Of a stretch of DNA of 64,000 bases, positions 10,732 through 42,909 are shown one piece after another (within the stretch, counting starts at the first letter, position 1; every line of letters starts with the position of its first letter). Both the position numbers and the translations under genes were made by a program. Origin of the DNA: Gemmatimonadales bacterium (GTDB lineage: Bacteria; Gemmatimonadota; Gemmatimonadetes; Gemmatimonadales; GWC2-71-9); contig DASSBA010000222.1 in the NCBI GenBank assembly GCA_035699205.1, forward strand, positions 33,988 through 97,987, given 5' to 3'. The notes under the pieces were generated by a model that searched no databases, was not told the origin of the DNA, and saw only the letters and a list, made by a program, of their open reading frames with translations.

Positions 10732-10773
10732 GTCGAAGGTCGACCTGCGACCCACGACCCACGACCCACGACC
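10725..10773. repeat. inverted arrays of tandem heptamers (imperfect hairpin)
   Basis: Left arm gtcgtag/gtcgaag/gtcgacc. Right arm gacccac x3 (10749-10769) plus gacc. The arms are imperfect reverse complements. The element fills the gap between the oxidase stop (10729-10731) and the thyX ATG (10782). Confidence 0.7.
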
Positions 10774-10781
10774 AGACACCC

Positions 10782-11534
10782 ATGGACATCCTCCGCGAGC
10801 CCCGCGTCACCCTCATCGCCCGCCCCCAGTTCCTCGAGCCGGGTCACCTGCCGGTCCAGTGGAAGGGCGAGGCGAGCGACGGCGAACGGATCGCCGAGTT
10901 CGCCGGCCGGCTCTGCTACATGAGCCAGGGCAACCCGGCCGGCCGGACGACGGGCGAGTACCTGCGGAACATCCTCAAGCAGGGCCACGGCTCGGTGTTC
11001 GAGCACGCGACCTACGTGATGTTGATCGAGGGGATTTCGCGGAGCTGCAGCCATGAGCTGGTGCGCCACCGGGCGGGCTGGGGCTACTCGCAGCTCTCCC
11101 AGCGCTACGTGGACGAGTCCCACGCGGCCTTCGTGATGCCGCCCGCCATCCTCGGGGATTCCGAGCTCGAGGCCGAGTGGACGCGGCAGGTCGAGGCGGC
11201 CCAGTCGGCCTACGTGGCCGCGGTGGAGCACCTGATGGCGCGCTACCAGTGGGTGGAGAACAAGGTGCACCGCCGGAAAATGGCGCGCGAAGCGGCGCGA
11301 AGCGTCCTGCCCAACGCCACCGAGGTGAAGATCGTGGCCAGCGCCAACGTCCGCGCCTGGCGCACCATGCTCGAGCTTCGTCTCGGCGAAGGCGCCGAGC
11401 TGGAGATTCGCCGGATGGCCGTCGCCTGCCTCCGCGTGCTCCAGCGCGAGGCGCCGTCGCTGTTCGATGACTTCGAGATCTTCCGCTCCGCCGACGGGAG
11501 CGAGGCGGGTCGGGTGGGGTTTCACAAGGTCTAG
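10782..11534 (+). CDS. thyX: FAD-dependent thymidylate synthase
   Basis: ATG 10782. ThyX motif RHRAGWGYSQLSQRY (RHR-x8-SxR) and overall ThyX-like sequence. Confidence 0.9.
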   Translation: MDILREPRVTLIARPQFLEPGHLPVQWKGEASDGERIAEFAGRLCYMSQGNPAGRTTGEYLRNILKQGHGSVFEHATYVMLIEGISRSCSHELVRHRAGWGYSQLSQRYVDESHAAFVMPPAILGDSELEAEWTRQVEAAQSAYVAAVEHLMARYQWVENKVHRRKMAREAARSVLPNATEVKIVASANVRAWRTMLELRLGEGAELEIRRMAVACLRVLQREAPSLFDDFEIFRSADGSEAGRVGFHKV

Positions 11535-11570: not shown

Positions 11571-11640
11571 TCCCCAAAAACTATTGTGCTCCCGAAACCT
11601 TTTCCTTACTTTAGTTTCGTCGAAGCACCTAACTCGTCGC

Positions 11641-11668
11641 GGCTCGTCTCTCGTGGACGGCCTTTTTT
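11641..11668 (+). promoter_or_regulatory. terminator-like hairpin plus T6 inside the leader of the ATP-grasp operon (candidate attenuator)
   Basis: ggctcgtc (11641-11648) pairs with gacggcc (11656-11662): 7 bp with one bulge and a 7-nt loop, then tttttt (11663-11668). GAGGGG and the TTG start at 11683 follow within 15 nt. Confidence 0.45.
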
Positions 11669-11682
11669 GTAGAGGGGCGCTC

Positions 11683-12789
11683 TTGGCAGTTCGGATCGGA
11701 CTCGCCTTCAATCTCAAGCCCGACGCACCGGCAAACACAGCGGCCGGGGCCACGACCGACCCCTCATCTCCGGACGAGCCCGACAGTCGGGCACTCCGCG
11801 ACGACCTTCCCCAACCCGATCTCTACGCCGAGTGGGACGAGCCCGCCACCATCGATGCGGTGGAGCGCGCGCTGAGCACCGTCGGCCGGGTCTACCGCCT
11901 CGAGGCCAACGCCAGCTTCGCCGCCAGGCTCGCGCTGGTCCGGCCGGACTTCGTCTTCAACATTGCCGAAGGGCTCTACGGGCCGAACCGCGAGGGGCAC
12001 GTCCCCGCCATCTGCGAGTTCCTCGGCATCCCCTGTCACGCCTCCGACCCGCTCACCCTCGGGCTCGCGCTCGACAAGCGGCGCGCCAAGGAAGTGATGT
12101 CGTACCACGGCGTGCCCACGGCGCCATTCGTCCTCGCCCGGAGCCCCGACGACGCCCGGAAGGTGCGGCTTCCCTTTCCGCTCTTCGTCAAGCCGGCGTT
12201 CGAGGGCTCGGGCAAGGGCGTCAGCGTGCGGAGCGTCTGCAAGACCCGGAGTCAGCTCGTAAAGCAGGTCTCGAAGCTGCTCGCGACGTATGCCGAGCCG
12301 GTGCTCATCGAGACCTATCTGCCGGGACCCGAGTTTACCGTCGCGGTGCTCGGCAACGGGAGCGAGGCGCGCTGCCTGCCCATCGTCGGCATGGACTTTG
12401 AAACGCTGCCGCGGGGTGCGCCGCCGATCTACGGCTACGAAGCGAAGTGGCTGTGGGATTCGCCGAGCCATCCACTGGAGATCTTCGACTGCCCGGCCAG
12501 GATTCCCGAGGCACTGGCCGAGGATGTTCGCGCCGCCGCGCTGGCGGCGTATCACGCGCTGGACTGCCGCGACTGGTGCCGCATCGATATCCGTTGCGAC
12601 GCCGCCAATCGCCCCATGGTCGTCGAATTGAACCCGCTTCCGGGCATTTTGCCCGACCCGCGGGACAATTCCTGCTTCCCGAAGGCCGCACGGGCCGCCG
12701 GGATGAGCTACGACGAGCTGATCCGTACCGTCGCCGACATCGCCTGGCGTCGGATCAGCGGCCGTTCACTTCTGGCGGAGGTGGCGTGA
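11683..12789 (+). CDS. D-alanine--D-alanine ligase-family ATP-grasp enzyme (paralogue 1)
   Basis: TTG 11683 preceded by GAGGGG. The N-terminus RIGLAFNLK aligns with KVAILYDAG of the next gene. Contains PLFVKPAFEGSGKGV, EPVLIETYLPGPEF, MVVELNPLPG. A low-complexity insert follows the first strand. Confidence 0.8.
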   Translation: MAVRIGLAFNLKPDAPANTAAGATTDPSSPDEPDSRALRDDLPQPDLYAEWDEPATIDAVERALSTVGRVYRLEANASFAARLALVRPDFVFNIAEGLYGPNREGHVPAICEFLGIPCHASDPLTLGLALDKRRAKEVMSYHGVPTAPFVLARSPDDARKVRLPFPLFVKPAFEGSGKGVSVRSVCKTRSQLVKQVSKLLATYAEPVLIETYLPGPEFTVAVLGNGSEARCLPIVGMDFETLPRGAPPIYGYEAKWLWDSPSHPLEIFDCPARIPEALAEDVRAAALAAYHALDCRDWCRIDIRCDAANRPMVVELNPLPGILPDPRDNSCFPKAARAAGMSYDELIRTVADIAWRRISGRSLLAEVA

Positions 12790-13799
12790 TGAAAGTGGCG
12801 ATCCTGTACGATGCCGGCAGCGACGAGTGGAGCCCGCAGGACGTCGCGGCGGTCGTGGGCAACGTCCACGAGGTCCGCGACGTCCTCCGGCGGCGGGGGC
12901 ACGAGGTCGAGCTGCTCCCGGTCCGCCTGGGCGACTTCCGCTGGCTCGGCCGCGTTCGCCGGGTCGACCTCGTCTTCAATCTCTGCGAGGGGATCAACGG
13001 CCACGCCCGGTACGAGGACCTGGTCGTCGGGACGCTCGAGCTTGCCGGCGTGGCCTTCACCGGCTGCCGCACCTGGCCCACCACCATCTGCCACCGGAAG
13101 CACGTCGCCAACACGCTGCTCTCGGCGGCCGGGCTGCCGGTTCCCGCGTTCATGCTGGCGCAGGCCAACAAGACGCCGGCCGAATTTCCGCTCCCGGCCA
13201 TCGTGAAGCCGTCGGCCGAGGACGCCAGCGTCGGCATCGACAACGGCGCGGTCTGCACCTCGAAGCGGGCGCTCAAGAAGCGGGTCGCCCTCATGCTCGA
13301 GCAGTTCGAGGAGGTGCTGGTCCAGGAGTACGTGGCCGGCCGCGAGTTCAATGTCGGCTTCGTCGGCAAGCGCATGCTGCCGATCGCCGAGATCCGCTTC
13401 GACGGGATGCCCGACGGCACCTGGCCGATCGTGAGCTATGCCGCCAAGTGGATTCCCGGAAGCCCCGAGGACGAGGGTACCGTCCCCATCTGCCCCGCCG
13501 ACGTGCCGGACGAGCTGGCCAGGCGCATCGGAGAGGTGGCCCGGCAGGCCTGGCTTCACATGGCGGGCGGCGAGGGCTACGGCCGAGTGGATCTCCGGGT
13601 CAACGAGGACGGCCAGCCCTACGTGCTCGAGGTCAACCCCTGCCCCGATCTTTCGAGCAACGCCGGCCTGGCCCGGATGGGCCGCTCGTTCGGCTGGAGC
13701 TACGACGATCTCGTCATGCACATCGTGGACGAGGCGCTGATGCGCTCCCAGACCCACACCGCCGCCGCGGCCCTGGTCAGCGGGGTGTCGGCCGCGTGA
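12789..13799 (+). CDS. D-alanine--D-alanine ligase-family ATP-grasp enzyme (paralogue 2)
   Basis: ATG 12789 overlaps the upstream TGA. Contains AIVKPSAEDASVGI, EEVLVQEYVAGREF, YVLEVNPCPD. Confidence 0.85.
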   Translation: MKVAILYDAGSDEWSPQDVAAVVGNVHEVRDVLRRRGHEVELLPVRLGDFRWLGRVRRVDLVFNLCEGINGHARYEDLVVGTLELAGVAFTGCRTWPTTICHRKHVANTLLSAAGLPVPAFMLAQANKTPAEFPLPAIVKPSAEDASVGIDNGAVCTSKRALKKRVALMLEQFEEVLVQEYVAGREFNVGFVGKRMLPIAEIRFDGMPDGTWPIVSYAAKWIPGSPEDEGTVPICPADVPDELARRIGEVARQAWLHMAGGEGYGRVDLRVNEDGQPYVLEVNPCPDLSSNAGLARMGRSFGWSYDDLVMHIVDEALMRSQTHTAAAALVSGVSAA

Positions 13800-14320
13800 G
13801 CGGCACGCTCACCCTGGCATCGCTCCGGAACCTCACCGCGGCCGACCGCGGCCGCATCGAGGAGATCAGCCGTGCGGTCGGTCTCTTCCGCCCGGACGAA
13901 ATCGCGGTCGCCCTCGAGGTCCTCGAGGGAGCCGTGGCGGGCTCGCCCGACTACATCGCTCTCGGCGCGGAGCACGAGGGTCGCCTGGCGGGTTGGATCT
14001 GCTGGGGCCCCACTCCGTGCACCCTCGGTACCTTCGACCTCTACTGGATGGCGGTGGACCCGGCGCTCCACGGCACCGGGATCGGCACCGCCCTCCTCCA
14101 TGCGATGGAACGGCGGCTGGCCGGCGTCGCCCGACTCATCGTCGTGGAGACCGCAGGCCGTCCGGACTACGCGCCCACCCGCGCATTCTACGAGCGGCGG
14201 GGGTACCGGGTCGCGTCCAGAATTCCCGAGTTCTACGCCCCGGGCGATGATCAGGTCGTTTACGTGAAGTCCCTCGGCGGCGAGGCCCGGGTCCCGAAGC
14301 CGCTCCGTGAGTCACCCTGA
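13796..14320 (+). CDS. GNAT family N-acetyltransferase
   Basis: GTG 13796 in a GTGA overlap. The acetyl-CoA loop-like LHGTGIGTALL and FYERRGY are typical of GNAT. Confidence 0.8.
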   Translation: MSGTLTLASLRNLTAADRGRIEEISRAVGLFRPDEIAVALEVLEGAVAGSPDYIALGAEHEGRLAGWICWGPTPCTLGTFDLYWMAVDPALHGTGIGTALLHAMERRLAGVARLIVVETAGRPDYAPTRAFYERRGYRVASRIPEFYAPGDDQVVYVKSLGGEARVPKPLRESP

Positions 14321-14367
14321 GCGAAGCGTGGGGACATGCGATCGGGCATGGCTCCTACGCTTCCCGC
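14311..14367. repeat. degenerate REP-like palindromic element
   Basis: gtcaccctgagcgaagcgtgggga (14311-14334) faces tcctacgcttcccgc (14353-14367) around an inner palindrome catgc...gcatg (14335-14350). It resembles the GTCATCCCGAGCGGAGCGAGGGATC unit at 37889. Confidence 0.55.
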
Positions 14368-14418
14368 TGGACGGCTCTACAATGGAATCGTGCTCTAGGC
14401 AGGAGGACGGGTAGCGTC

Positions 14419-15543
14419 ATGGAAACCTGGCAAGAGGTTCTCAAGAACAACTCGATCAAGTCCCTCGACGCGCTCGCGGCCAAGTTCGGCCCCGAGCACT
14501 TTCCCGACCTCGACCGCCTGCGGCAGGCGGCCGAGAACTTCGAGTTCCGGATCTCGCCCGCCATGGTGGACCTGATCAGGTCGCCCGACGACCCGATCTG
14601 GCGGCAGTATATCCCTACGGTGGACGAGCTGGACATCGTGGACGGGATCGTGGACTCGCTCAACGAGGACGCCGACAGCCCGGTCCCCAACATCACCCAC
14701 CGCTATCCCGACCGGGCGCTTTTCCTGGTGAGCCCGGTCTGCGCCAGCTACTGCCGCTTCTGCACCCGGCGGCGCAAGGTGGGCGACCCGGAAAAGATCC
14801 CGATGTCGCAGTTCGAGAGTGCGTTCCAGTATCTCGAGCAGCACACCGAGATCCGGGACGTCATCATGTCGGGAGGCGACCCACTGCTGCTCAACGACCG
14901 GCGGCTCGAGGCCATCCTCACCCGGCTCCGGGCCATCCCGCACCTCGAGATCATCCGGGTCGGAAGCCGGGTGCCGTGCCACCTTCCCGAGCGGATCACG
15001 CCCGAGCTGTGCGCCACCCTCAAGCGGTTCCACCCGCTCTGGATCAACACCCACTTCAACCACCCCGACGAGCTCACCCCGGCCGCGGTGAAGGGCCTGG
15101 GCATGCTGGCCGACGCGGGCATCCCGCTGGGCTGCCAGACGGTGCTGCTCAAGGGCGTGAACGACGATCCCGAGGTCATGAAGCGGCTGATGCAGCGGCT
15201 GCTCGTGGCGCGGGTGCGGCCTTACTACATCTACATGGCCGACCAGGTGGCCGGTGCCGAGCACTTCCGGACCAGCGTTCAGACCGGCATCAAGATCATG
15301 GAGGCGCTCCGGGGCTGGACCAGCGGCCTGGCCAACCCACACTTCGTCATCGACGCGCCGGGCGGCGGCGGGAAGATCCCGCTCCTGCCGGAGTACGTCG
15401 TGAGCATGAGCGACGAGGAGGTCGTGCTCCGCAACTTCCGCGGCCAGCAGTACGTGTACCGCCAGCCGCGGGAGGAGCCCGGCGTGATCACTCTCAAGCA
15501 GGAACGCAAGCGCGCCGCCCGGCGGGGGCGCCGGAGCGCGTGA
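14419..15543 (+). CDS. kamA: KamA-family radical SAM aminomutase, lysine 2,3-aminomutase type
   Basis: 374 aa. CASYCRFC (CxxxCxxC), SGGDPLLL, HFNHP, VIDAPGGGGKIP (PLP lysine). Full-length resemblance to clostridial LAM. Confidence 0.9.
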   Translation: METWQEVLKNNSIKSLDALAAKFGPEHFPDLDRLRQAAENFEFRISPAMVDLIRSPDDPIWRQYIPTVDELDIVDGIVDSLNEDADSPVPNITHRYPDRALFLVSPVCASYCRFCTRRRKVGDPEKIPMSQFESAFQYLEQHTEIRDVIMSGGDPLLLNDRRLEAILTRLRAIPHLEIIRVGSRVPCHLPERITPELCATLKRFHPLWINTHFNHPDELTPAAVKGLGMLADAGIPLGCQTVLLKGVNDDPEVMKRLMQRLLVARVRPYYIYMADQVAGAEHFRTSVQTGIKIMEALRGWTSGLANPHFVIDAPGGGGKIPLLPEYVVSMSDEEVVLRNFRGQQYVYRQPREEPGVITLKQERKRAARRGRRSA

Positions 15544-21234: not shown

Positions 21235-23277
21235 TCATGCGACCGCGTGCTCCTTTTCGTTCTCCGCCGCCACTCTGGCCGCCACTTCCGGCGGCGCCTC
21301 CGCGTACCCGTGGAACTTCTCCCGGTGGGTGCCCCGACCGTGGGTGATGGAGTGCAGCGTCGTCGAGTACCGGTAGAGCTCCGCCTCCGGCACGATGGCC
21401 CGCACCTTGGTGAGCCGGCCGTCCGGCTCGGTGCCGAGGATCTGCCCCCGCCGGGCGCTCAGGTCGCCCATCACGTCGCCGAGGAGCTCGTCGGGCGCCC
21501 AGACGGTCACTTCGATCAACGGCTCGAGCAGGACCGGGCGGGCCTTCGCGGCCACGTTCCGGAACGCCAGGATACCCGCCATCTTGAACGACATCTCGTT
21601 GGAATCCACGTCGTGGTAGGACCCGTCGAAGCACTCCACCTGGAAGTCCACCATGGGGTACCCCGCCACCACCCCCCGCTCCGCCGACTCCTGGACGCCC
21701 CGGTCCACCGCCGGAATGAACTTGTTGGGGATCACGCCGCCGACGATGCTGTCCACGAACTCGTAGCCCGCCCCGCGCGGACGGGGGGAGATCCGGATCC
21801 AGCAGTCGCCGTACTGCCCGCGGCCGCCGCTCTGTTTCTTGTGCTTGCCCTGGCCCTCGGCCTTCCCCCTGATCGTCTCGCGGTACGCCACGCGCGGACG
21901 CGCCAGCTCGGCGTGCACGCCGTACTTCCGCTCCAGCCGCTGCAGGATGGTCTCGAAGTGCCGCTCTCCCATGCCATGAATCAGCGTCTGGCCGAGCTCG
22001 GAACTGTACTCGAAATGAAAGGTGGGGTCCTCCTCGTGCAGCTTGTGGAGGCCCGCGGCCAGCTTGTCCTCCTCACCCCGCTGCTTCACCACGACGGCCG
22101 AGGTGGCCTCGGAGGCCGGCAGCGGGATCGGCGGGAGCCGGACCGGCGCGTCGCGCCGGCAGAAGGTGTCACCCGTATGGGTGTCCTTGAGCTTGGCGAC
22201 CGACCCGATGTCCCCTGCGCAGAGCTGCTCCACCTCGATTCGCTCCTTGCCCTGCTGGATCGAGAGGTGGTTCAGCTTCTCGGCCACGTCGTGCTCGGCG
22301 TTCCAGACCTCGTCCCCGTTCCGGAGCTCGCCCGTGTAGAGCCGGAACAGGCTCACATCGCCCACATGCGGCTCGGACATCGTCTTGAACACCCGACCGA
22401 CCAGCGGCGCGTCCACCGGCGGCGTGCGCTCGGCGGGTGACGGGAACAACTCCACCATCTTCCGGAGCAGTGTCCGGAGCCCATAGGTCAGCGTGGCGCT
22501 GCCGCAGAAGAGGGGGACGACCTGCCCCCCCAGCATCGCGTTCTTGACCGCACCGATGAACTGCTCGCGCGGGATCTCCTCCCCCGCGAGATAGCGCTCG
22601 ATCAGGTCGTCGTCGGTCGAGGCGACCGCCTCCGTGAGGTGCTCGCCGTATTCCCGGTAGCGCGCCTCATATTCCGCGGGGATCGGCACCACCTCGTTCT
22701 CGCCCTTGAGCGCGCCCTTCTGGTAGAGGTGGCAGTGACCGGAGAAGAGGTTGATGATCCCGTGGAAGTCGGGGCCGTCGCCGACCGGAATCTCCACCGG
22801 CACGACCCTGGACGTCAGATGCGCCCTCACGTGGGCGAAAACCCGCTCGAAGTCCGCGTGCTCCTTATCCATGAGCGAGACGAACAGGGCGCGGGGCAGA
22901 TGCAGCCGGTCGAGGACCTCCCAGGCCTTTTCGGTGCCCACCTCGACCCCGCTGGTGCCGCTCACCACGACCACGGCGGCGTCGGCGGCATGCAGGCCGG
23001 TGACGACTTCACCGAAGTAATCGAGGTAGCCCGGGGTGTCGATGAGGTTGAGCTTGGTGTCCATCCACTCGGCGAAGCCCAGGGCCAGATTGATGGAATG
23101 CTGTCGGGCGATTTCGTCGGGGGAGTAATCGGTGAGGGTGGTACCGTCCTTGATGCCGCCATGGCGGCGGCTGCTGCCGGATACCCAGGCGAGGGCGTCC
23201 ACGAGCGACGTCTTGCCGCTGCCTCCATGACCGACGAACGCCACGTTGCGGATGGCGCTGGAGCCATAGACCTTCAT
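21235..23277 (-). CDS. elongation factor G family GTPase (stand-alone paralogue)
   Basis: ATG 23277 about 9 nt after AAGGAGG. Contains G1 GHGGSGKT, G3 DTPG, and EF-G domains II-V. It is not in an rpsL-rpsG-fusA-tuf context. Confidence 0.9.
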   Translation of the reverse strand: MKVYGSSAIRNVAFVGHGGSGKTSLVDALAWVSGSSRRHGGIKDGTTLTDYSPDEIARQHSINLALGFAEWMDTKLNLIDTPGYLDYFGEVVTGLHAADAAVVVVSGTSGVEVGTEKAWEVLDRLHLPRALFVSLMDKEHADFERVFAHVRAHLTSRVVPVEIPVGDGPDFHGIINLFSGHCHLYQKGALKGENEVVPIPAEYEARYREYGEHLTEAVASTDDDLIERYLAGEEIPREQFIGAVKNAMLGGQVVPLFCGSATLTYGLRTLLRKMVELFPSPAERTPPVDAPLVGRVFKTMSEPHVGDVSLFRLYTGELRNGDEVWNAEHDVAEKLNHLSIQQGKERIEVEQLCAGDIGSVAKLKDTHTGDTFCRRDAPVRLPPIPLPASEATSAVVVKQRGEEDKLAAGLHKLHEEDPTFHFEYSSELGQTLIHGMGERHFETILQRLERKYGVHAELARPRVAYRETIRGKAEGQGKHKKQSGGRGQYGDCWIRISPRPRGAGYEFVDSIVGGVIPNKFIPAVDRGVQESAERGVVAGYPMVDFQVECFDGSYHDVDSNEMSFKMAGILAFRNVAAKARPVLLEPLIEVTVWAPDELLGDVMGDLSARRGQILGTEPDGRLTKVRAIVPEAELYRYSTTLHSITHGRGTHREKFHGYAEAPPEVAARVAAENEKEHAVA

Positions 23278-23415
23278 GGCCTCCACCTCCTTCGGAGAGT
23301 TGGATTTTCAAGGTGGAGAGGGGGGAAGAAGTTGTCAAATCAGGCTGGCGCGGCCGGCGCCCGGGCTGTAGCATAGTGCCGCATGCCGGTCCTCCCCCCA
23401 CACTCAGGAGCCCTC

Positions 23416-37776: not shown

Positions 37777-38016
37777 GGAAGGGCAGAAAGGCGGAAGGAC
37801 GGAAAGGCGGAAGGACGGAAAGGCGGAAAGGCGGAAAGGCGGAAAGGTAGACAAGTAGACAGACAGAACGTCGCATGGTGCCGAGACGGTCATCCCGAGC
37901 GGAGCGAGGGATCTGGCCGGGCCGAGCTCGGACTCGGGAGAGTAGATCCCTCGCTCCGCTCGGGATGACAGACTGGCTCGGCACGTCCTTCCGCCTTTCC
38001 GTCTTTCCGCCCTTCC
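37777..38016. repeat. composite palindromic element (MITE/BIME-like)
   Basis: Left octamer/16-mer array GGAAAGGC(GGAAGGAC) at 37777-37848. Perfect 26-bp inverted repeat gtcatcccgagcggagcgagggatct (37889-37914 / 37944-37969) around a ccgagctcgg palindrome. Right inverted array gtccttccgcctttccgtctttccgcccttcc at 37985-38016. It fills the csoR/MFS convergent gap exactly. Confidence 0.8.
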
Positions 38017-39516
38017 CTATCTCTCCACCAGCTCCCGATGCATGTCCCTCCCCAGCGTCCGCATCGCCCCCAGCACGACGGCCCCCCCGATGATCACCAC
38101 TACCGGCAGCAGCAGGATGGCGCGGTCGAGCCCGAACCGGTCGCTCAGGCTGCCCACCAGCGGCAACGCGATCGCATCCCCGGCGAGGTGAATGAACAGC
38201 AGATAGGCGCCCGCCACCGTGGCGCTGATGCGCGGGGGCACGACGTCGAAGATCACGGCCGTCATCGGTCCGGTGTACCACGAGAGGCAGAAGAAGGCCA
38301 CCGCGAATACCGCCTGGAAGAGCGCGGGATCGCGGATGGTGAGAAGCCAGAGCGCCAGCGGCCCACCGAGCAGCAGCCCGAGCGCCACCACGATCACGCG
38401 CGCCGTTTCCCACCGCCGCCGGAGCCAGTCGGCGAGCACGCCGCCGAAGAGTGTGCCCGCGGTTCCCGAGATGAGCCCCCACTTGCCCAGCAGCCCCGCC
38501 GCTTCGGCGGAGCTCAGGTCGAGCTCGCGGGAGACGAACGTGGGCCCCCAGCCCACGATGCCGTTCAGGCCGAAGGAGATCATCGCCCCGGCGAGGAAGA
38601 CGTACACCAGCGTCGGCGTGTGCAGCACCGTGCGCCCCGCGCGGACGATTTCGTCGAACGCCCCGCTGATCCCGCTGCCGAACGAGGTATCCGCCGCCAC
38701 GTCCGCGGGCGTGCGCCGCACCCAGCGGAAGATCGTGAGCGCGAGCCCGAGTCCCAGGGCTCCGCTGAAGACCGCGAGATCCACGGTGGAACCGGCGCCG
38801 TACTGGCGGTCCAGCCAGTAGGCCGCCGTGCCGCCGAGGGCCATTGCCACGAGCAGCGGCCACAGGTTCCGCACCAGCGGCATGACGCCGATGCCGAAGT
38901 CGCGCAGGAACGACCGGACCGTGAGGCGCGCGGGGGTCCGCGTCGGGTCGATCAGCCGGGAGACGAGCACCGCGAGGATGAAGCCGGGTACGCCCACCGT
39001 CATGAACGCCACCCGCCATCCGTACACGCCCTCGAGGTGCCCGCCGAGCAGGAGTCCGAGCACGCCGCCGAGCGCGATGCCGGAGGAGAGGATCCCCATC
39101 GCCACCGCGCGGCCGCGGGCCGGGAAGTAGTCGGCCACGAGCGACGCCGCCGCGGGCCCGTAGGCTGCCTCGCCCACGCCGACAGCCGCGCGGCAGGTGA
39201 AGAGCTGCCCGAAGGAGTTCACGAGCCCGCTCAGGAACGTGAACGCGCTCCACACCGTCACCCCGCCCGCGATGACCGCGCGGCGCGAGCGCAGGTCGCT
39301 CAGCACGCCGAAGGGCAGCGCGGAGACCGAGAAAACGAAGATGTAGGCGGAACCCAGCCAGCCGAGCTGCGAGTCGGTCAGCGCGAGGTCGCGCTTGATC
39401 GGCTCGAACAGGGCGTAGATGACGTTCCGGTCGACGTAGTTGAGGAGGTTGATGAGGGCGAGCAGTCCGAGCGCATACCAGCTGTACGCCCGGCCAGGCG
39501 GTGCCGGTGGGGTCAC
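38017..39516 (-). CDS. MFS transporter
   Basis: 499 aa with about 12-14 TM helices. N-terminal [15 protein letters not shown] is typical of MFS. GTG start in a GTGA overlap with the upstream gene. Confidence 0.85.
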
Positions 39517-40688
39517 CGGCGCGCCGCCGTCTCGGTTCCCCCGGCGCCCGGGTGCATGTGGGCCAGCGACTCCTCCGCGCGCTCGTCGCGGAAGGCGAGG
39601 GCCGCCTTGTACTCCTGCACCAGCCGGTCCATCATCGCCTGGCGCTTCCCATATAGGCGCTTGAGCGGGCGCGCAGCGTGCCGCTCCATGGCGTACGCCG
39701 TGAGCAGCGGCAGCGCGATCGAGTTGTCGGTGTACACGACCACCGTGCCCGGGAGCTGGTCGGGATCGATCTTGCCCCAGCTCACCGCCTCCGCGGGCGT
39801 GGCGCCGCTGAGGCCGCCCGTGTCGGGGCGTGCGTCGGTCATCTGGAGGAAGTAGTCGTGGCCGCGTTCGTCGATCCCCAGCACCTCCTGGATCTGGGGC
39901 TCGGTTTGCAGCATGAAGTTCTTGGGGCTCCCTCCGCCCACGATCAGCACCCCGCTCTTCCCGCCGGTACGCTTGGCCTCGAGTACGATGCTCGCCGTCT
40001 CGTTCACGTCGGCGCTGACGTCGAACCGGAGCTTGCTGCCGGCCAGCGCCTGCTCGGCCACGTTCATCCCGATCGAGCTGTCGCCCGGAGAGCTGGTGTA
40101 GAGCGGCACCTCGAGCTCGTGCGCCGCCGCCAGGACCGAGCGGCGCGAAAGGCCGAGGGCCCGCTCGCGCTCGCGTACGTAGCCGCCGAGGAGGTGATGG
40201 TACTCGGCCGAGCTCATGGGGCGCTGGAACTCGGGCCGGGCGGAGACTTCCCGGATGAACGCGTCGGTCGAGAGCAGCACGCTGTAGTCGAAGAAGATGT
40301 CGTAGATGCGGACCACACCTTTGTCGCGGAGCTCCACGTCGTCTGCGGTCGGTGTGCCGCGATGCATCGCCAGCCCGAGAGCGAAGTGCGCGTCGTGGTA
40401 GAGATTGGCCCCCGTCGAGATGACCCAGTCCACGAATCCCGCCTCCATGAGCGGGATGAGGCAGCTCATGCCCAGCCCGGCGGGTGTCATCGCGCCGGTG
40501 AGGGTCATTCCCACCGTGGTGTCCGGCTCGAGCATCCGCCGGGTGAAGAGCTGACAGCCTTCGCGGAGCCGGCCGGCGTTATAGGCCAGGAACGCGTCGT
40601 CGATCAGCGCGGCCGCCGTTTCGCCGCCCGCGATGGGCCTGGGCTCGATGCGCTGGCCGCGCAGAAACTGGTCCGAGGGTCTGGTCAT
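39513..40688 (-). CDS. deoxyhypusine synthase-family protein (bacterial DHS-like)
   Basis: 391 aa. Full-length DHS-like pattern ([47 protein letters not shown]...EAVSWGK). Confidence 0.85.
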
Positions 40689-40692
40689 CTGG

Positions 40693-41448
40693 TCATCCCA
40701 TGATGCGGGCGGCCGCGTCTTCGGGCTTCGCCGCGCGCGCCTCGATGACGATCCGTGCCGCCTCGGCCGGATCGTCGGTGACGCGGAACAGCAGCAGGTC
40801 CGTCGGGTTGATCTTGCGCTCCTCGGCCACCGTGCGGGTGAGCCACTCCACCAGCCCGGCCCAGTATGCGCTGCCGAATAATATCACCGGGAAATGCTTC
40901 ACCTTGCCGGTCTGGATCAGCGTGAGCGCCTCGAACAGTTCGTCGAGCGTGCCGTAACCGCCGGGGAAGACGATGAACGCGGTGGCGTACTTCACGAACA
41001 TCGTCTTCCGCACGAAGAAGAACTTGAAGTTGAGGCTGCGGCTGAGGTACGCGTTGGACCCCTGCTCGAACGGCAGCTCGATGTTGCATCCGATCGAGAG
41101 CCCGCCGCCTTCCTTCGCACCTCGGTTGGCCGCCTCCATGATGCCGGGCCCGCCGCCGGTGATGACCGGAATGCCGGCCTGCGCCAGGAGCATCGTCGTC
41201 TGCACGGCCTTCACGTACAACGGGTCCATCGGCGTGGTGCGGGCGGAGCCGAACACCGTCACCCCTTCGTACACGTCGGCCAGGTGATCGAATCCCCAGA
41301 CGAATTCGCCCATGATGCGGAGTACCCGCCACGAATCCGACTTCTGAAACAGCTGCTCCGGGCGCTGCGGCGACGGGCTCTCCAGCAGCTGCTCGTCCTC
41401 GGTGGGGAGCTTGTTATCGTCGAGCCGGCGGTAGGGGCTATTGGTCAC
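40693..41448 (-). CDS. LOG / TIGR00730 family Rossmann-fold protein (formerly annotated lysine decarboxylase-like)
   Basis: Contains GGGPGIMEA and PGGYGTLDE motifs. GTG 41448 overlaps the upstream gene by 11 nt. Confidence 0.85.
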
Positions 41449-42586
41449 GGGTGAGTCGCTCGATGGCCGCCCGGTGGTCGTCCGGGACATTGTAGAAGTA
41501 AGGGGAGATCCGCACGTGGCCGGGTCGGCTGTCGGCCACGATGCCGGCGGCGGCCAGGCGGCGGACGGCCGCCGCCGGATCGGCATTCGGCAGCATGACG
41601 ATGCCGGTGCGGCGATCGGGCTCCGCGGCGACCCGGGGCCGGAGGCCCGCCGCACGGGCCTGCTCGATCAGGTCCTCGGCCAGCGCCATGGTCCGGCGGC
41701 GGAGTTCCAGGTCACCCAGTTCTTCGAGCAGTTCGAGCCCGCCGAGCTGGGCGTAAACCGGCATGAGCGGTGGGGTGCCGGCTTCGAGCCGGCGCGCGTC
41801 GTCGTGGAGCTGGAGCGACCGGGGGTCGAAGCGGAACTGGTCCCGGTGCGCAAACCAGCCGCTCGCCCTCGGCGCGAGGGTGGGCAGCAGCTCGGGGCGC
41901 GCGTACATGAACGCCACCCCGGCGCCGCCGAGCAGCCACTTGAGGCCGCCGCTGCAGTAGAAGTCCACATCGAGCGCCCGTACGTCCACCGGGAGCTGGC
42001 CGGCGGCCTGGTAGCCGTCCACGAGGAGCAGCGCGCCGCGCCGGTGTGCCGCCTCGGCCACAGCGTGCACGTCCTGGATGGCCCCGGTGGCGTACCAGAC
42101 GTGACTGGTGGCGACGAGGGCGGTCCGGTCGTCCACCGCGCGGGTAATCGCCTCGACGGGCAGCGAGATCCCGTCGGGACTCTCCACCATCACCAGCTCG
42201 ATCCCCTCGCCCGCCCGCGCCAGCCACTGGTACGCGACAGTGGGAAAATCGAGGCTCGTCACGACCACCTTGGGCCGGCGGCGATAGTCGAGCGATTCGG
42301 CCACCGCCGCGAGGGCCGACGAAATGCTGGAATGCAGCGCGACCGAGCCCTCCGGTGCCCCGATCCAGCGCGCGTAGCGCGACCGCAGTTCGGCCAGCGC
42401 CGCCCACCATACGTCATACCACGCCGCGGCCCCGCGGGTCTCCCAGGCATCGAGGTACTGGTTGACCCGGGCGCGCGAGCGCGACGACAGCGGCCCGAGG
42501 GAGCAGCTGTTGAGATAGATGGCCTGGCGGAAAATCGGGAATTCCGCCCGATAGTCCCGGGGCGGCGCCGGGGCGGCGACGGGCAT
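41438..42586 (-). CDS. aminotransferase class V-fold PLP-dependent enzyme
   Basis: ATG 42586. Contains YLNSCSLGP and CSGGLKWLLGG (putative PLP lysine). Cysteine-desulfurase/kynureninase-like fold; subfamily not resolved. Confidence 0.8.
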   Translation of the reverse strand: MPVAAPAPPRDYRAEFPIFRQAIYLNSCSLGPLSSRSRARVNQYLDAWETRGAAAWYDVWWAALAELRSRYARWIGAPEGSVALHSSISSALAAVAESLDYRRRPKVVVTSLDFPTVAYQWLARAGEGIELVMVESPDGISLPVEAITRAVDDRTALVATSHVWYATGAIQDVHAVAEAAHRRGALLLVDGYQAAGQLPVDVRALDVDFYCSGGLKWLLGGAGVAFMYARPELLPTLAPRASGWFAHRDQFRFDPRSLQLHDDARRLEAGTPPLMPVYAQLGGLELLEELGDLELRRRTMALAEDLIEQARAAGLRPRVAAEPDRRTGIVMLPNADPAAAVRRLAAAGIVADSRPGHVRISPYFYNVPDDHRAAIERLTRDQ

Positions 42587-42654
42587 GGTGGACAATATAG
42601 GTGGGCCGCGGGCCGCGCTACGCTCGGGATGAGGGTGTGCATATACTTCGGCCC

Positions 42655-42909
42655 ATGTCATGGCCCTCCCTCGCGCTCCGGCTGTTCGGCCGCGGTCTCG
42701 TCAACCCGCGCCTGGGAATGGATCTGCTCAGGACCGCCTGGGCGTTCCGCCGCCGCGCCTGGTGGTCCCGCCGGCCGTTCCTGCCGCTCCCCGATCGGGA
42801 GTACCTGCGGTGGCGGATGTACACGGCCTACGCCGACGAATCCGCCGTGCCGCCGGCCGGTGATGTCATCCGCTTCGCGCGGTGGCGCCGAGAGACGATG
42901 GGGCTCTGA
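42655..42909 (+). CDS. hypothetical small Arg/Trp-rich protein
   Basis: ATG 42655, 84 aa. Its stop lies 2 nt before the ndh ATG. No family recognised. Confidence 0.4.
   Translation: MSWPSLALRLFGRGLVNPRLGMDLLRTAWAFRRRAWWSRRPFLPLPDREYLRWRMYTAYADESAVPPAGDVIRFARWRRETMGL

Follow-up and report, generated by a model that had tools for sequence, protein, structure and literature searches.

A conserved four-gene cassette of two Ddl-like ATP-grasp ligases, a GNAT acetyltransferase and a lysine-type aminomutase: a candidate route to N-acetylated beta-lysine conjugates

Based on the analysis reported here, we suggest that a cassette of four co-directional genes makes an N-acetylated, amide-linked beta-lysine derivative. 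The cassette lies in a 64,000-nt stretch of DNA from a Gemmatimonadales bacterium (contig DASSBA010000222.1, positions 33,988 to 97,987; hereafter, the window). It encodes two ATP-grasp ligases related to D-alanine--D-alanine ligase (Ddl), here referred to as AG1 and AG2, an N-acetyltransferase of the GNAT family, and KamA, a radical S-adenosylmethionine (SAM)/pyridoxal phosphate (PLP) aminomutase. The product would most likely be a small molecule that stays in the cytoplasm or is exported, either a conjugate resembling a di- or tripeptide or a short oligomer, and we give this reading as a whole a probability of roughly 0.5. All four families are known, while their combination is without a described pathway in the open-access text that was searched; we found neither a description of the cassette nor an experiment on any of its members in this literature, in which such a report could have been missed. 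The four genes are:

11683-12789, + strand: AG1, Ddl-like ATP-grasp ligase, 368 aa, TTG start at 11683
12789-13799, + strand: AG2, second Ddl-like ATP-grasp ligase, 336 aa, ATG start at 12789-12791
13796-14320, + strand: GNAT N-acetyltransferase, 174 aa; its GTG start lies within the GTGA shared with the AG2 stop
14419-15543, + strand: KamA-family aminomutase (radical SAM/PLP), 374 aa, with a pocket of the lysine type and predicted to act as an L-lysine 2,3-aminomutase

The first three genes are coupled by stop/start overlaps. The stop codon of AG1 (TGA, 12787-12789) overlaps the start codon of AG2 (ATG, 12789-12791) in a TGATG, and the stop of AG2 overlaps the start of the GNAT gene in the GTGA at 13796-13799. 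By contrast, a spacer of 98 nt (14321-14418) separates the GNAT gene from that for KamA. The TTG start of AG1 has a GAGGGG 6 nt upstream, and the AG1 homologues are all ~368 aa long with a common TTGGCAGTTCG start. The G+C content of the window is ~70%, and the closest relatives of its proteins are encoded by metagenome-assembled genomes (MAGs) of Gemmatimonadales. A first-pass annotation, made from the sequence alone, had described the four co-directional genes, both overlaps and the spacer, and all of them are confirmed at the positions it gave. The families that it had named also agree with Pfam and NCBIfam, which return two ATP-grasp proteins with a Dala_Dala_lig_C domain, a GNAT, and a protein with Radical_SAM and LAM_C domains.

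Conservation and fusion of the cassette

A profile of AG2 relatives, with one genome per species, gave 80 loci, and the addition of one further locus (L001) resulted in a set of 81 in which gene order was determined by tblastn with the four window proteins. The order AG1-AG2-GNAT-KamA is present in 64 of these 81 loci. It is found in all 19 loci from Ignavibacteria/Bacteroidota, in which identity to the window proteins is 33-41% for AG2 and 52-59% for KamA. Three of the 81 loci end at a contig edge. Across the Gemmatimonadales relatives, KamA is 78-96% identical among the matches listed, and the locus is part of the syntenic core genome. In other lineages, complete sets are present in rearranged and partly fused form:

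L082, Desulfoferrobacter: KamA-AG1 fusion, AG2, GNAT
L084, Spirochaetes MAG: KamA, AG1-AG2 fusion, GNAT
L086, Gammaproteobacteria MAG, and L083, 5.7-Mb genome: divergent major facilitator superfamily (MFS) transporter, KamA, AG1-AG2 fusion, GNAT
L085, 204-kb ENA metagenome contig: KamA-AG1 fusion, AG2, deacetylase-GNAT

Natural fusions cover every junction of the cassette. AG1-AG2 fusions (~650-790 aa; P0266, P0272 and others) always keep this order, and they are accompanied by AG2-GNAT fusions (~500-540 aa; P0246, P0250, P0253 and others), AG-AG-GNAT fusions of 834 and 944 aa (P0439 and P0459), and KamA-AG1 fusions of 746-826 aa (P0477, P0481, P0482, P0490, P0494 and P0499). Because the order is conserved, complete sets recur in rearranged form in other phyla, and the fusions act as Rosetta stones, the four genes are one unit. 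The cassette is conserved, and in places fused, over at least six bacterial phyla, and its four genes represent a genuine functional unit in an arrangement that is far beyond chance. Thus, the neighbourhood, whose conservation in related genomes the first-pass annotation had made a touchstone of its idea, is kept well beyond related genomes and across phyla, and the fusions include those of KamA with an ATP-grasp ligase.

Aminomutase, ligases and acetyltransferase

The window KamA contains the Pfam domains PF04055 (Radical_SAM) and PF12544 (LAM_C), and the sole curated model that it passes is that of the KamA family (TIGR00238; 281.7 bits, cut-off 199.2). Among the specific models, that of the AblA lysine 2,3-aminomutase (LAM; TIGR03820) scores best, with 441.8 bits against a cut-off of 525.4. 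The protein also remains below the cut-offs of the AblA-like-2 model (316 vs 396 bits), the EpmB model TIGR03821 (228.4 vs 369.3 bits) and the models for glutamate (385 vs 650) and arginine (318 vs 600) 2,3-aminomutases, and it keeps both pocket aspartates. In an alignment with the lysine 2,3-aminomutase of Clostridium subterminale (PDB 2A5H; E = 4.6e-112), in which the core is without gaps, the CASYCRFC motif aligns with C125/C129/C132, R117 with R134, D275 (in YMAD) with D293, D312 (in VIDAPG) with D330, and the lysine of GGGGK with K337. In 2A5H, Asp293 and Asp330 bind the epsilon-amine of lysine, Arg134 its carboxylate and Lys337 the PLP. The CASYCRFC, YMAD and VIDAPGGGGK motifs had been picked out before, together with a mapping of the two acidic residues to Asp293 and Asp330; the motifs are all present, and the mapping is correct by this alignment.

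The same seven residues (C125/C129/C132, R134, D293, D330 and K337) are kept in 66 of the 66 cassette-linked KamAs that could be extracted. For ten cassette KamAs from six lineages, the AblA model is again the best (435-509 bits, all below 525.4), while the EpmB model gives 221-265 bits with a cut-off of 369. Judged by sequence, the cassette KamAs are a coherent lysine-type subfamily that stands beside, yet outside, the curated LAM/AblA equivalog, and the predicted reaction is the conversion of L-lysine to beta-lysine. A grouping with EpmB, together with an epmA/efp pair, had been named in the first-pass annotation as a finding that would count against its idea. KamA is not EpmB-like by score, the Asp/Asp/Arg lysine pocket is kept, and neither efp nor epmA was found in a Pfam scan of the ~50 open reading frames (ORFs) of the 64-kb window or in the related loci; the scan of the window also returned no mur/fts genes and no ddl.

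AG1 and AG2 share 32% identity. Both match PF07478 (Dala_Dala_lig_C; 116 and 96 bits, respectively), and neither matches Dala_Dala_lig_N in Pfam, i.e. only the C-terminal domain of Ddl is recognised. On the best Ddl model (NF002378, cut-off 243), AG1 and AG2 score 172.5 and 136.8 bits, and on a further Ddl model 142 and 121.6 bits; the cut-offs of the NCBIfam Ddl subfamilies are 243-246 bits. The best PDB relatives of both proteins are Ddl enzymes (E ~1e-25 to 1e-29), and an AlphaFold2 (AF2) model of AG2 with a predicted local distance difference test (pLDDT) score of 95.3 has fold matches to Ddl entries alone, at 20-28% identity. The GGxSxE loop of Ddl is replaced in both ligases, with a 35-residue insertion at this position in AG1. 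AG2 and its fused homologues also have weak matches to the TTL family.

We surveyed the active-site residues in 74 AG1 and 65 AG2 orthologues aligned to E. coli DdlB, whose numbering is used here. The residues for ATP, Mg and acyl-phosphate binding (K97, K144, E187, K215, R255, D257, E270 and N272) are invariant in all 74 AG1 and all 65 AG2 proteins, and so are two substitutions, H63E (in an NxxEG motif) and Y216W, in both families. In Ddl, E15 holds the amine of the amino-acid donor and S281 the carboxylate of the acceptor. AG1 keeps E15, S150, G276 and S281 with the substitution L282C; AG2 has D/E15, S150A, an invariant G276D, S281A and L282G. With the catalytic residues invariant in both families, both proteins are predicted to be active ligases and not a pair of a catalytic and a dead subunit. 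Across phyla, the scores invariably identify the first ligase gene as AG1 and the second one as AG2, and this constancy argues that the duplication is ancient and the two roles are distinct. It would follow that AG1 and AG2 form two different amide bonds, and a cationic diamino-acid substrate would be in keeping with the acidic residues gained (H63E in both ligases and G276D in AG2). The AG2 family comprises 816 representatives of 50%-identity clusters at E <= 1e-30, with named members in Gammaproteobacteria, Spirochaetota, Planctomycetales, Omnitrophica and Deltaproteobacteria. That the two genes could be the bona fide Ddl of the organism had been raised as a possible objection; with 172 and 137 bits against 243, no match to Dala_Dala_lig_N, and the invariant H63E and Y216W substitutions, they are not bona fide Ddl enzymes.

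The GNAT matches PF13508 and PF00583 above their cut-offs in Pfam, and its HGTGIGTAL segment fits the acetyl-CoA-binding motif A. There is no match to the AblB model; at E <= 0.01, NCBIfam gave only RimI (38 bits, cut-off 86), PRK03624 and AAC(6')-Ia, none of which reached its cut-off. The AF2 model (pLDDT 90) has GNATs as its top structural matches, first PDB 2R7H and then generic ones. The fold searches with AG2 and the GNAT thus revealed no nearer analogue of defined function. 2R7H (DDE_3044) is clearly homologous to the GNAT of the cassette (E = 4.7e-28, template-modelling (TM) score 0.82-0.90, 36% identity over the structural alignment). It is a structural-genomics entry from Desulfovibrio desulfuricans/alaskensis G20 that was deposited as a "putative D-alanine N-acetyltransferase", a name that appears to have been guessed from its Ddl-like neighbours. 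Dde_3047 proved to encode a Ser/Thr phosphatase with no relation to the cassette. After 2R7H, the nearest functional models and structures are RimI-type protein N-acetyltransferases.

In two loci, a PF00850 domain (histone deacetylase/acetylpolyamine amidohydrolase) is fused to the cassette GNAT (L085, 10587-12872; L086, 9195-11447), giving proteins of 750-761 aa. These fusions suggest that the acetylation is reversible, with a cycle of acetylation and deacetylation in some lineages. The first-pass annotation had assigned the GNAT the role of a cap. In the lineages with the deacetylase domain, a simple terminal cap is argued against.

Proposed pathway and competing explanations

In our model, KamA would isomerise free L-lysine to beta-lysine (3,6-diaminohexanoate), as its class, cofactor motifs and pocket indicate. 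AG1 and AG2, which are co-translated, would probably pair as a heterodimer built like the homodimer of Ddl, an arrangement that the tandem fusions suggest. Each ligase would activate a carboxylate as an acyl phosphate and form one amide bond on or with beta-lysine. The GNAT would then acetylate a remaining free amine with acetyl-CoA. In lineages with a PF00850 fusion, the acetylation would probably be reversible and could serve as a switch between a neutral and a cationic form or as a protecting group. The outline of beta-lysine formation, two ligations and acetylation had been proposed in the first-pass annotation. It was supported wherever it was open to computational testing, and it gains from the conserved unit, the ligases with their intact catalytic residues and the precedents of AblA/AblB, Ngg and PylB/PylC; the simple terminal cap is argued against in some lineages.

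Two known systems share individual steps with this model. In pyrrolysine synthesis, the product of a radical-SAM lysine mutase (PylB) is joined by a Ddl-like ATP-grasp ligase (PylC) via an amide bond, i.e. as proposed for the cassette, a lysine mutase yields a rearranged diamino acid that then undergoes Ddl-like ligation. However, PylB is not a KamA-family/PLP enzyme, PylD has no counterpart in the cassette, the pyrrolysine route has no GNAT, and PylC was not among the PDB sequence matches of AG1 or AG2 at E <= 1e-3. Similarly, Ngg and AsnO make the osmoprotectant dipeptide N-acetylglutaminylglutamine amide (NAGGN) in Sinorhizobium and Pseudomonas, and in Ngg, as in the AG2-GNAT fusions, a GNAT is fused or coupled to an ATP-grasp ligase; the product of Ngg is an N-acetylated dipeptide solute. 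Unlike the cassette ligases, the ATP-grasp of Ngg belongs to the RimK/cyanophycin-synthetase type and uses glutamine, and the route lacks both an aminomutase and a second, Ddl-like ligase.

EpmB and EpmA provide a third comparison, in which the beta-lysine made by a KamA-family enzyme is ligated through its carboxylate to an amine, and they lead to an alternative that we consider unlikely. Here, the ATP-grasp pair would place beta-lysine or a short chain on a protein or peptide, much as RimK or TTL do, or would take the place of EpmA on elongation factor P (EF-P), and the GNAT would acetylate the tag or its target. The RimI-type enzymes that follow 2R7H among the models and structures of the GNAT, the weak TTL-family matches and the behaviour of the cassette as a core, housekeeping-linked locus speak for such tagging, and the PF00850 fusions would suit the deacetylation of protein lysines. 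Yet, the cassette ligases are ATP-grasp enzymes and not paralogues of a class II aminoacyl-tRNA synthetase. By sequence and fold they belong to the Ddl clade, of which the known members act on small molecules. Moreover, the cassette KamAs are not of the EpmB type, with scores below the cut-off (221-265 bits vs 369), neither efp nor epmA was found among the ~50 ORFs scanned in the window, no gene for a possible target recurs beside the cassette in the different phyla, and the score of the GNAT on the RimI model is far under the cut-off (38 vs 86 bits).

With a similarly low probability, the ligases could act iteratively and build a polycationic compound for secretion or storage, either oligo-(beta-lysine) or a mixed diamino-acid oligomer, that is antibiotic- or polyamine-like and for which the GNAT, with or without the deacetylase, provides self-protection or activation. 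Beta-lysine oligomers with epsilon linkage are part of streptothricin, which GNATs detoxify through acetylation of its beta-amino group. Support for this alternative comes from plasmid pTHIMO01 of Thioflavicoccus mobilis (L090, NC_019941.1, 6691-12172), on which an ATP-grasp ligase with the same NLAEG and HKW motifs as the cassette ligases is encoded beside a lysine-type KamA together with a diaminobutyrate (DABA) transaminase, SbnA and an SbnB-like cyclodeaminase, the latter two for diaminopropionate (Dap) synthesis. This cluster, with enzymes for three diamino acids, looks like a pathway that joins several of them. The adjacent MFS transporter in two loci, the GNAT-deacetylase fusions and the acidic pocket residues, which suit cationic substrates, can be read in the same way. 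The plasmid cluster also counts in support of our own model, for which the transporter and the fusions are hints of a small-molecule product. By contrast, the cassette of Gemmatimonadota and Ignavibacteria is without a transporter, regulator or resistance gene; its place in the syntenic core genome, with KamA so highly conserved among the listed Gemmatimonadales relatives, is atypical of an antibiotic cluster; and two anciently separated ligases suggest two defined bonds and not one iterative polymerase. Matches of plasmid-borne ATP-grasp proteins from rhizobia and Streptomyces (~30% identity) were not informative, as their contexts are unrelated or unannotated.

The cassette also invites comparison with AblA/AblB, which make the osmolyte N-epsilon-acetyl-beta-lysine with an aminomutase and a GNAT in methanogens and some bacteria. 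Both show a genetic link between a lysine-type 2,3-aminomutase of the KamA family and a GNAT, and in the window the GNAT gene lies directly upstream of the gene for KamA, whose top-scoring model is AblA. That the cassette is an ordinary AblA/AblB route and that the ATP-grasp genes are mere neighbouring paralogues of a cell-wall Ddl is, nevertheless, very improbable. All 11 cassette KamAs tested, i.e. the window KamA and 10 of 10 relatives, score below the AblA equivalog cut-off, and the cassette GNAT has no match to AblB. The AblA/AblB route is without ATP-grasp ligases, while the cassette has two that are obligatory, catalytically intact, and in other lineages fused to the GNAT and to KamA. 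These ligases resemble DdlA, DdlB and the VanA family in fold, ATP-grasp catalytic residues and best PDB matches in sequence and structure. They differ in their low identity (20-28%), their scores below all NCBIfam Ddl cut-offs, the lack of a match to Dala_Dala_lig_N, and pockets altered by H63E and Y216W. Finally, they are found with KamA and the GNAT and not, as for Ddl, in a mur/fts cluster, of which no gene was found among the ~50 ORFs scanned in the window. By these comparisons, the cassette enzymes belong to none of the AblA/AblB, EpmB and Ddl types, and together they would work as a hybrid of the three.

Least probable of all is a role in lysine catabolism or fermentation, in which KamA would start beta-lysine degradation, as KamA-type enzymes do in lysine fermentation, and the GNAT would feed an acetyl-beta-lysine branch: apart from an ornithine-cyclodeaminase/mu-crystallin gene after KamA in two loci (L087 and L088), nothing points to it, since neither the window nor the related loci encode a beta-lysine 5,6-aminomutase, a 3,5-diaminohexanoate dehydrogenase, a cleavage enzyme or a CoA-transferase, ATP-consuming ligases are anabolic, and Gemmatimonadales are mostly aerobic soil heterotrophs.

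Four points weigh against an N-acetylated beta-lysine conjugate as the product. First, 14 Gemmatimonadales loci (L003-L006, L008, L010, L012, L014, L015, L018, L052, L055, L056 and L061) keep AG1-AG2-GNAT without KamA in the flank examined and have varied, unrelated genes downstream; in these genomes, either KamA has been relocated or the triad works without KamA or with another source of substrate. Second, the interpretation of the ligase pockets derives from sequence alignment to E. coli DdlB, whose sequence was verified over residues 62-303. Third, proteins are also among the substrates of PF00850 domains and RimI-like GNATs, and a protein target may therefore be conceivable. Fourth, genes for stress responses or transport do not accompany the cassette consistently, and its flanks are lineage-specific housekeeping genes.

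As for the function of the proposed conjugate, its description in the first-pass annotation as a compatible solute or envelope modifier was a guess. The high conservation and the location in the Gemmatimonadales core genome point to a physiological role, and we therefore favor a compatible solute or a polyamine-like compound over a strain-specific antibiotic.

Leader, spacer, neighbouring genes and implications

Three features in the non-coding sequence of the cassette stand out:

11576-11614, + strand: promoter-like motif upstream of AG1, with TTGTGC at 11584-11589, a 17-nt spacer and TACTTT at 11607-11612
11641-11668, + strand: terminator-like hairpin with a T6 run, between the promoter-like motif and the AG1 start (scan match 11644-11660)
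~14319-14367, + strand: REP-like hairpin in the GNAT-KamA spacer

The motif upstream of AG1, AAAAACTATTGTGC-N-TTTCCTTACTTTAG (or AAAAACTATTGTG-N16-TTTCTTACTTTAG), is nearly invariant and aligned in 14 Gemmatimonadales loci, and it is kept whether the upstream gene is thyX or folA. A strict sigma-70 scan did not detect it. The motif resembles the Bacteroidetes-type TAnnTTTG -7 box and may be a promoter. In an RNAalifold analysis of nine loci, the leader hairpin has an 8-bp stem in which three pairs show compensatory changes, followed by T6-7. The whole AG1 leader is not unusually stable (z = +1.3), i.e. its conserved part is the short terminator-like hairpin only. The order of promoter-like motif, terminator-like hairpin and gene suggests a leader attenuator, and the hairpin is possibly either such an attenuator or the terminator of thyX. 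Rfam returned no family at threshold in the window, the AG1 leader or the nine related loci, and a lysine riboswitch is excluded in these sequences at the sensitivity of the Rfam scan.

The fold of the spacer, over a 104-nt stretch, has a predicted energy of -44.2 kcal/mol (z = -2.7 vs shuffles). A second palindrome, at ~37890-37965, has the same GAGCGRAGCGWGGG arms, so that the label "REP-like", given to the spacer hairpin in the first-pass annotation, is a reasonable one. The two palindromes could belong to a family of repeats in this genome that are similar to repetitive extragenic palindromes (REP) or miniature inverted-repeat transposable elements (MITE); a count of the short motif of the element was not significant (5 observed vs 2.5 expected). 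In most related loci, the gap between the GNAT gene and KamA is 5-30 nt; therefore, the hairpin is a local insertion that lies outside the conserved cassette.

In Gemmatimonadota, the upstream flank of the cassette consists of DUF116, an FAD oxidase and thyX (or thyA-folA) and is lineage-specific; in the window, thyX (10770-11534) is just upstream of the cassette. At the syntenic position, thyX is replaced by the non-orthologous thyA together with folA in L001 (3928-5225) and L087 (1834-3125), and in L089 (1349-3184) ThyX contains an intein with an HNH domain. When the flanking ORFs of the non-Gemmatimonadota loci were clustered, the only recurrent genes were recG, upstream in 17 loci and the typical flank in Ignavibacteria, and that for an M24 peptidase, downstream in 9 loci; both were judged to reflect lineage synteny and not to be core parts of the cassette. 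The M24 metallopeptidase follows KamA in nine Ignavibacteria/Bacteroidota loci (e.g. L063, 10657-11871), and the ornithine-cyclodeaminase/mu-crystallin gene follows it directly in L087 (7255-8238) and L088 (1589-2572); either may be an accessory or turnover enzyme. Next to the cassette in the two loci with the divergent MFS transporter, there is a second, different ATP-grasp system (L083, 11385-17974; L086, 11610-15998) with an ATPgrasp_ST ligase, a 7TM transglutaminase-like protein, a RimB-like retropepsin and an AstE/AspA-type deacylase. In L083 this system also includes M14 peptidases; L086 ends before that point.

Two further loci of the window lie apart from the cassette. At 39513-42700 on the - strand, 24 kb away, a gene of the deoxyhypusine-synthase family (39513-40883), a LOG/"possible lysine decarboxylase" gene and a class-V aminotransferase gene may form a polyamine locus of the homospermidine type. 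At 21235-23307 on the - strand, a full-length gene for an EF-G-family GTPase, located away from ribosomal-protein operons, probably encodes an EF-G paralogue.

If the proposed pathway is correct, then an N-acetylated beta-lysine peptide or oligomer is a widespread metabolite that has been overlooked, and a subfamily of Ddl-derived ligases, with hundreds of 50%-identity clusters and many members annotated as "D-alanine--D-alanine ligase", gains a function. Through this mis-annotation, "ddl" and "vancomycin-resistance-like" ligases are overcounted in metagenomes. The cassette spans 3.9 kb, a crystal structure of a homologue of its GNAT exists (2R7H), and homologues are present in cultured and partly tractable organisms such as Desulfovibrio alaskensis G20 and Ignavibacterium album.

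Gemmatimonadota are among the most abundant and least studied phyla in soil, and the cassette is found in the syntenic core of Gemmatimonadales. Taking these observations together, we speculate, with somewhat more doubt than we attach to the pathway itself, that the cassette represents a third, so far unrecognised fate of beta-lysine in bacteria besides acetylation to an osmolyte by AblAB and the modification of EF-P by EpmAB. A heterodimeric, Ddl-derived ligase pair would then make a new class of N-acetylatable beta-lysine peptides or oligomers, and the product would be a core metabolite of Gemmatimonadota, Ignavibacteria, and many Desulfobacterota, Spirochaetota and Gammaproteobacteria. It may be a polyamine-like solute that can be switched between an acetylated and a deacetylated form and that is relevant to the drought tolerance of soil Gemmatimonadota.

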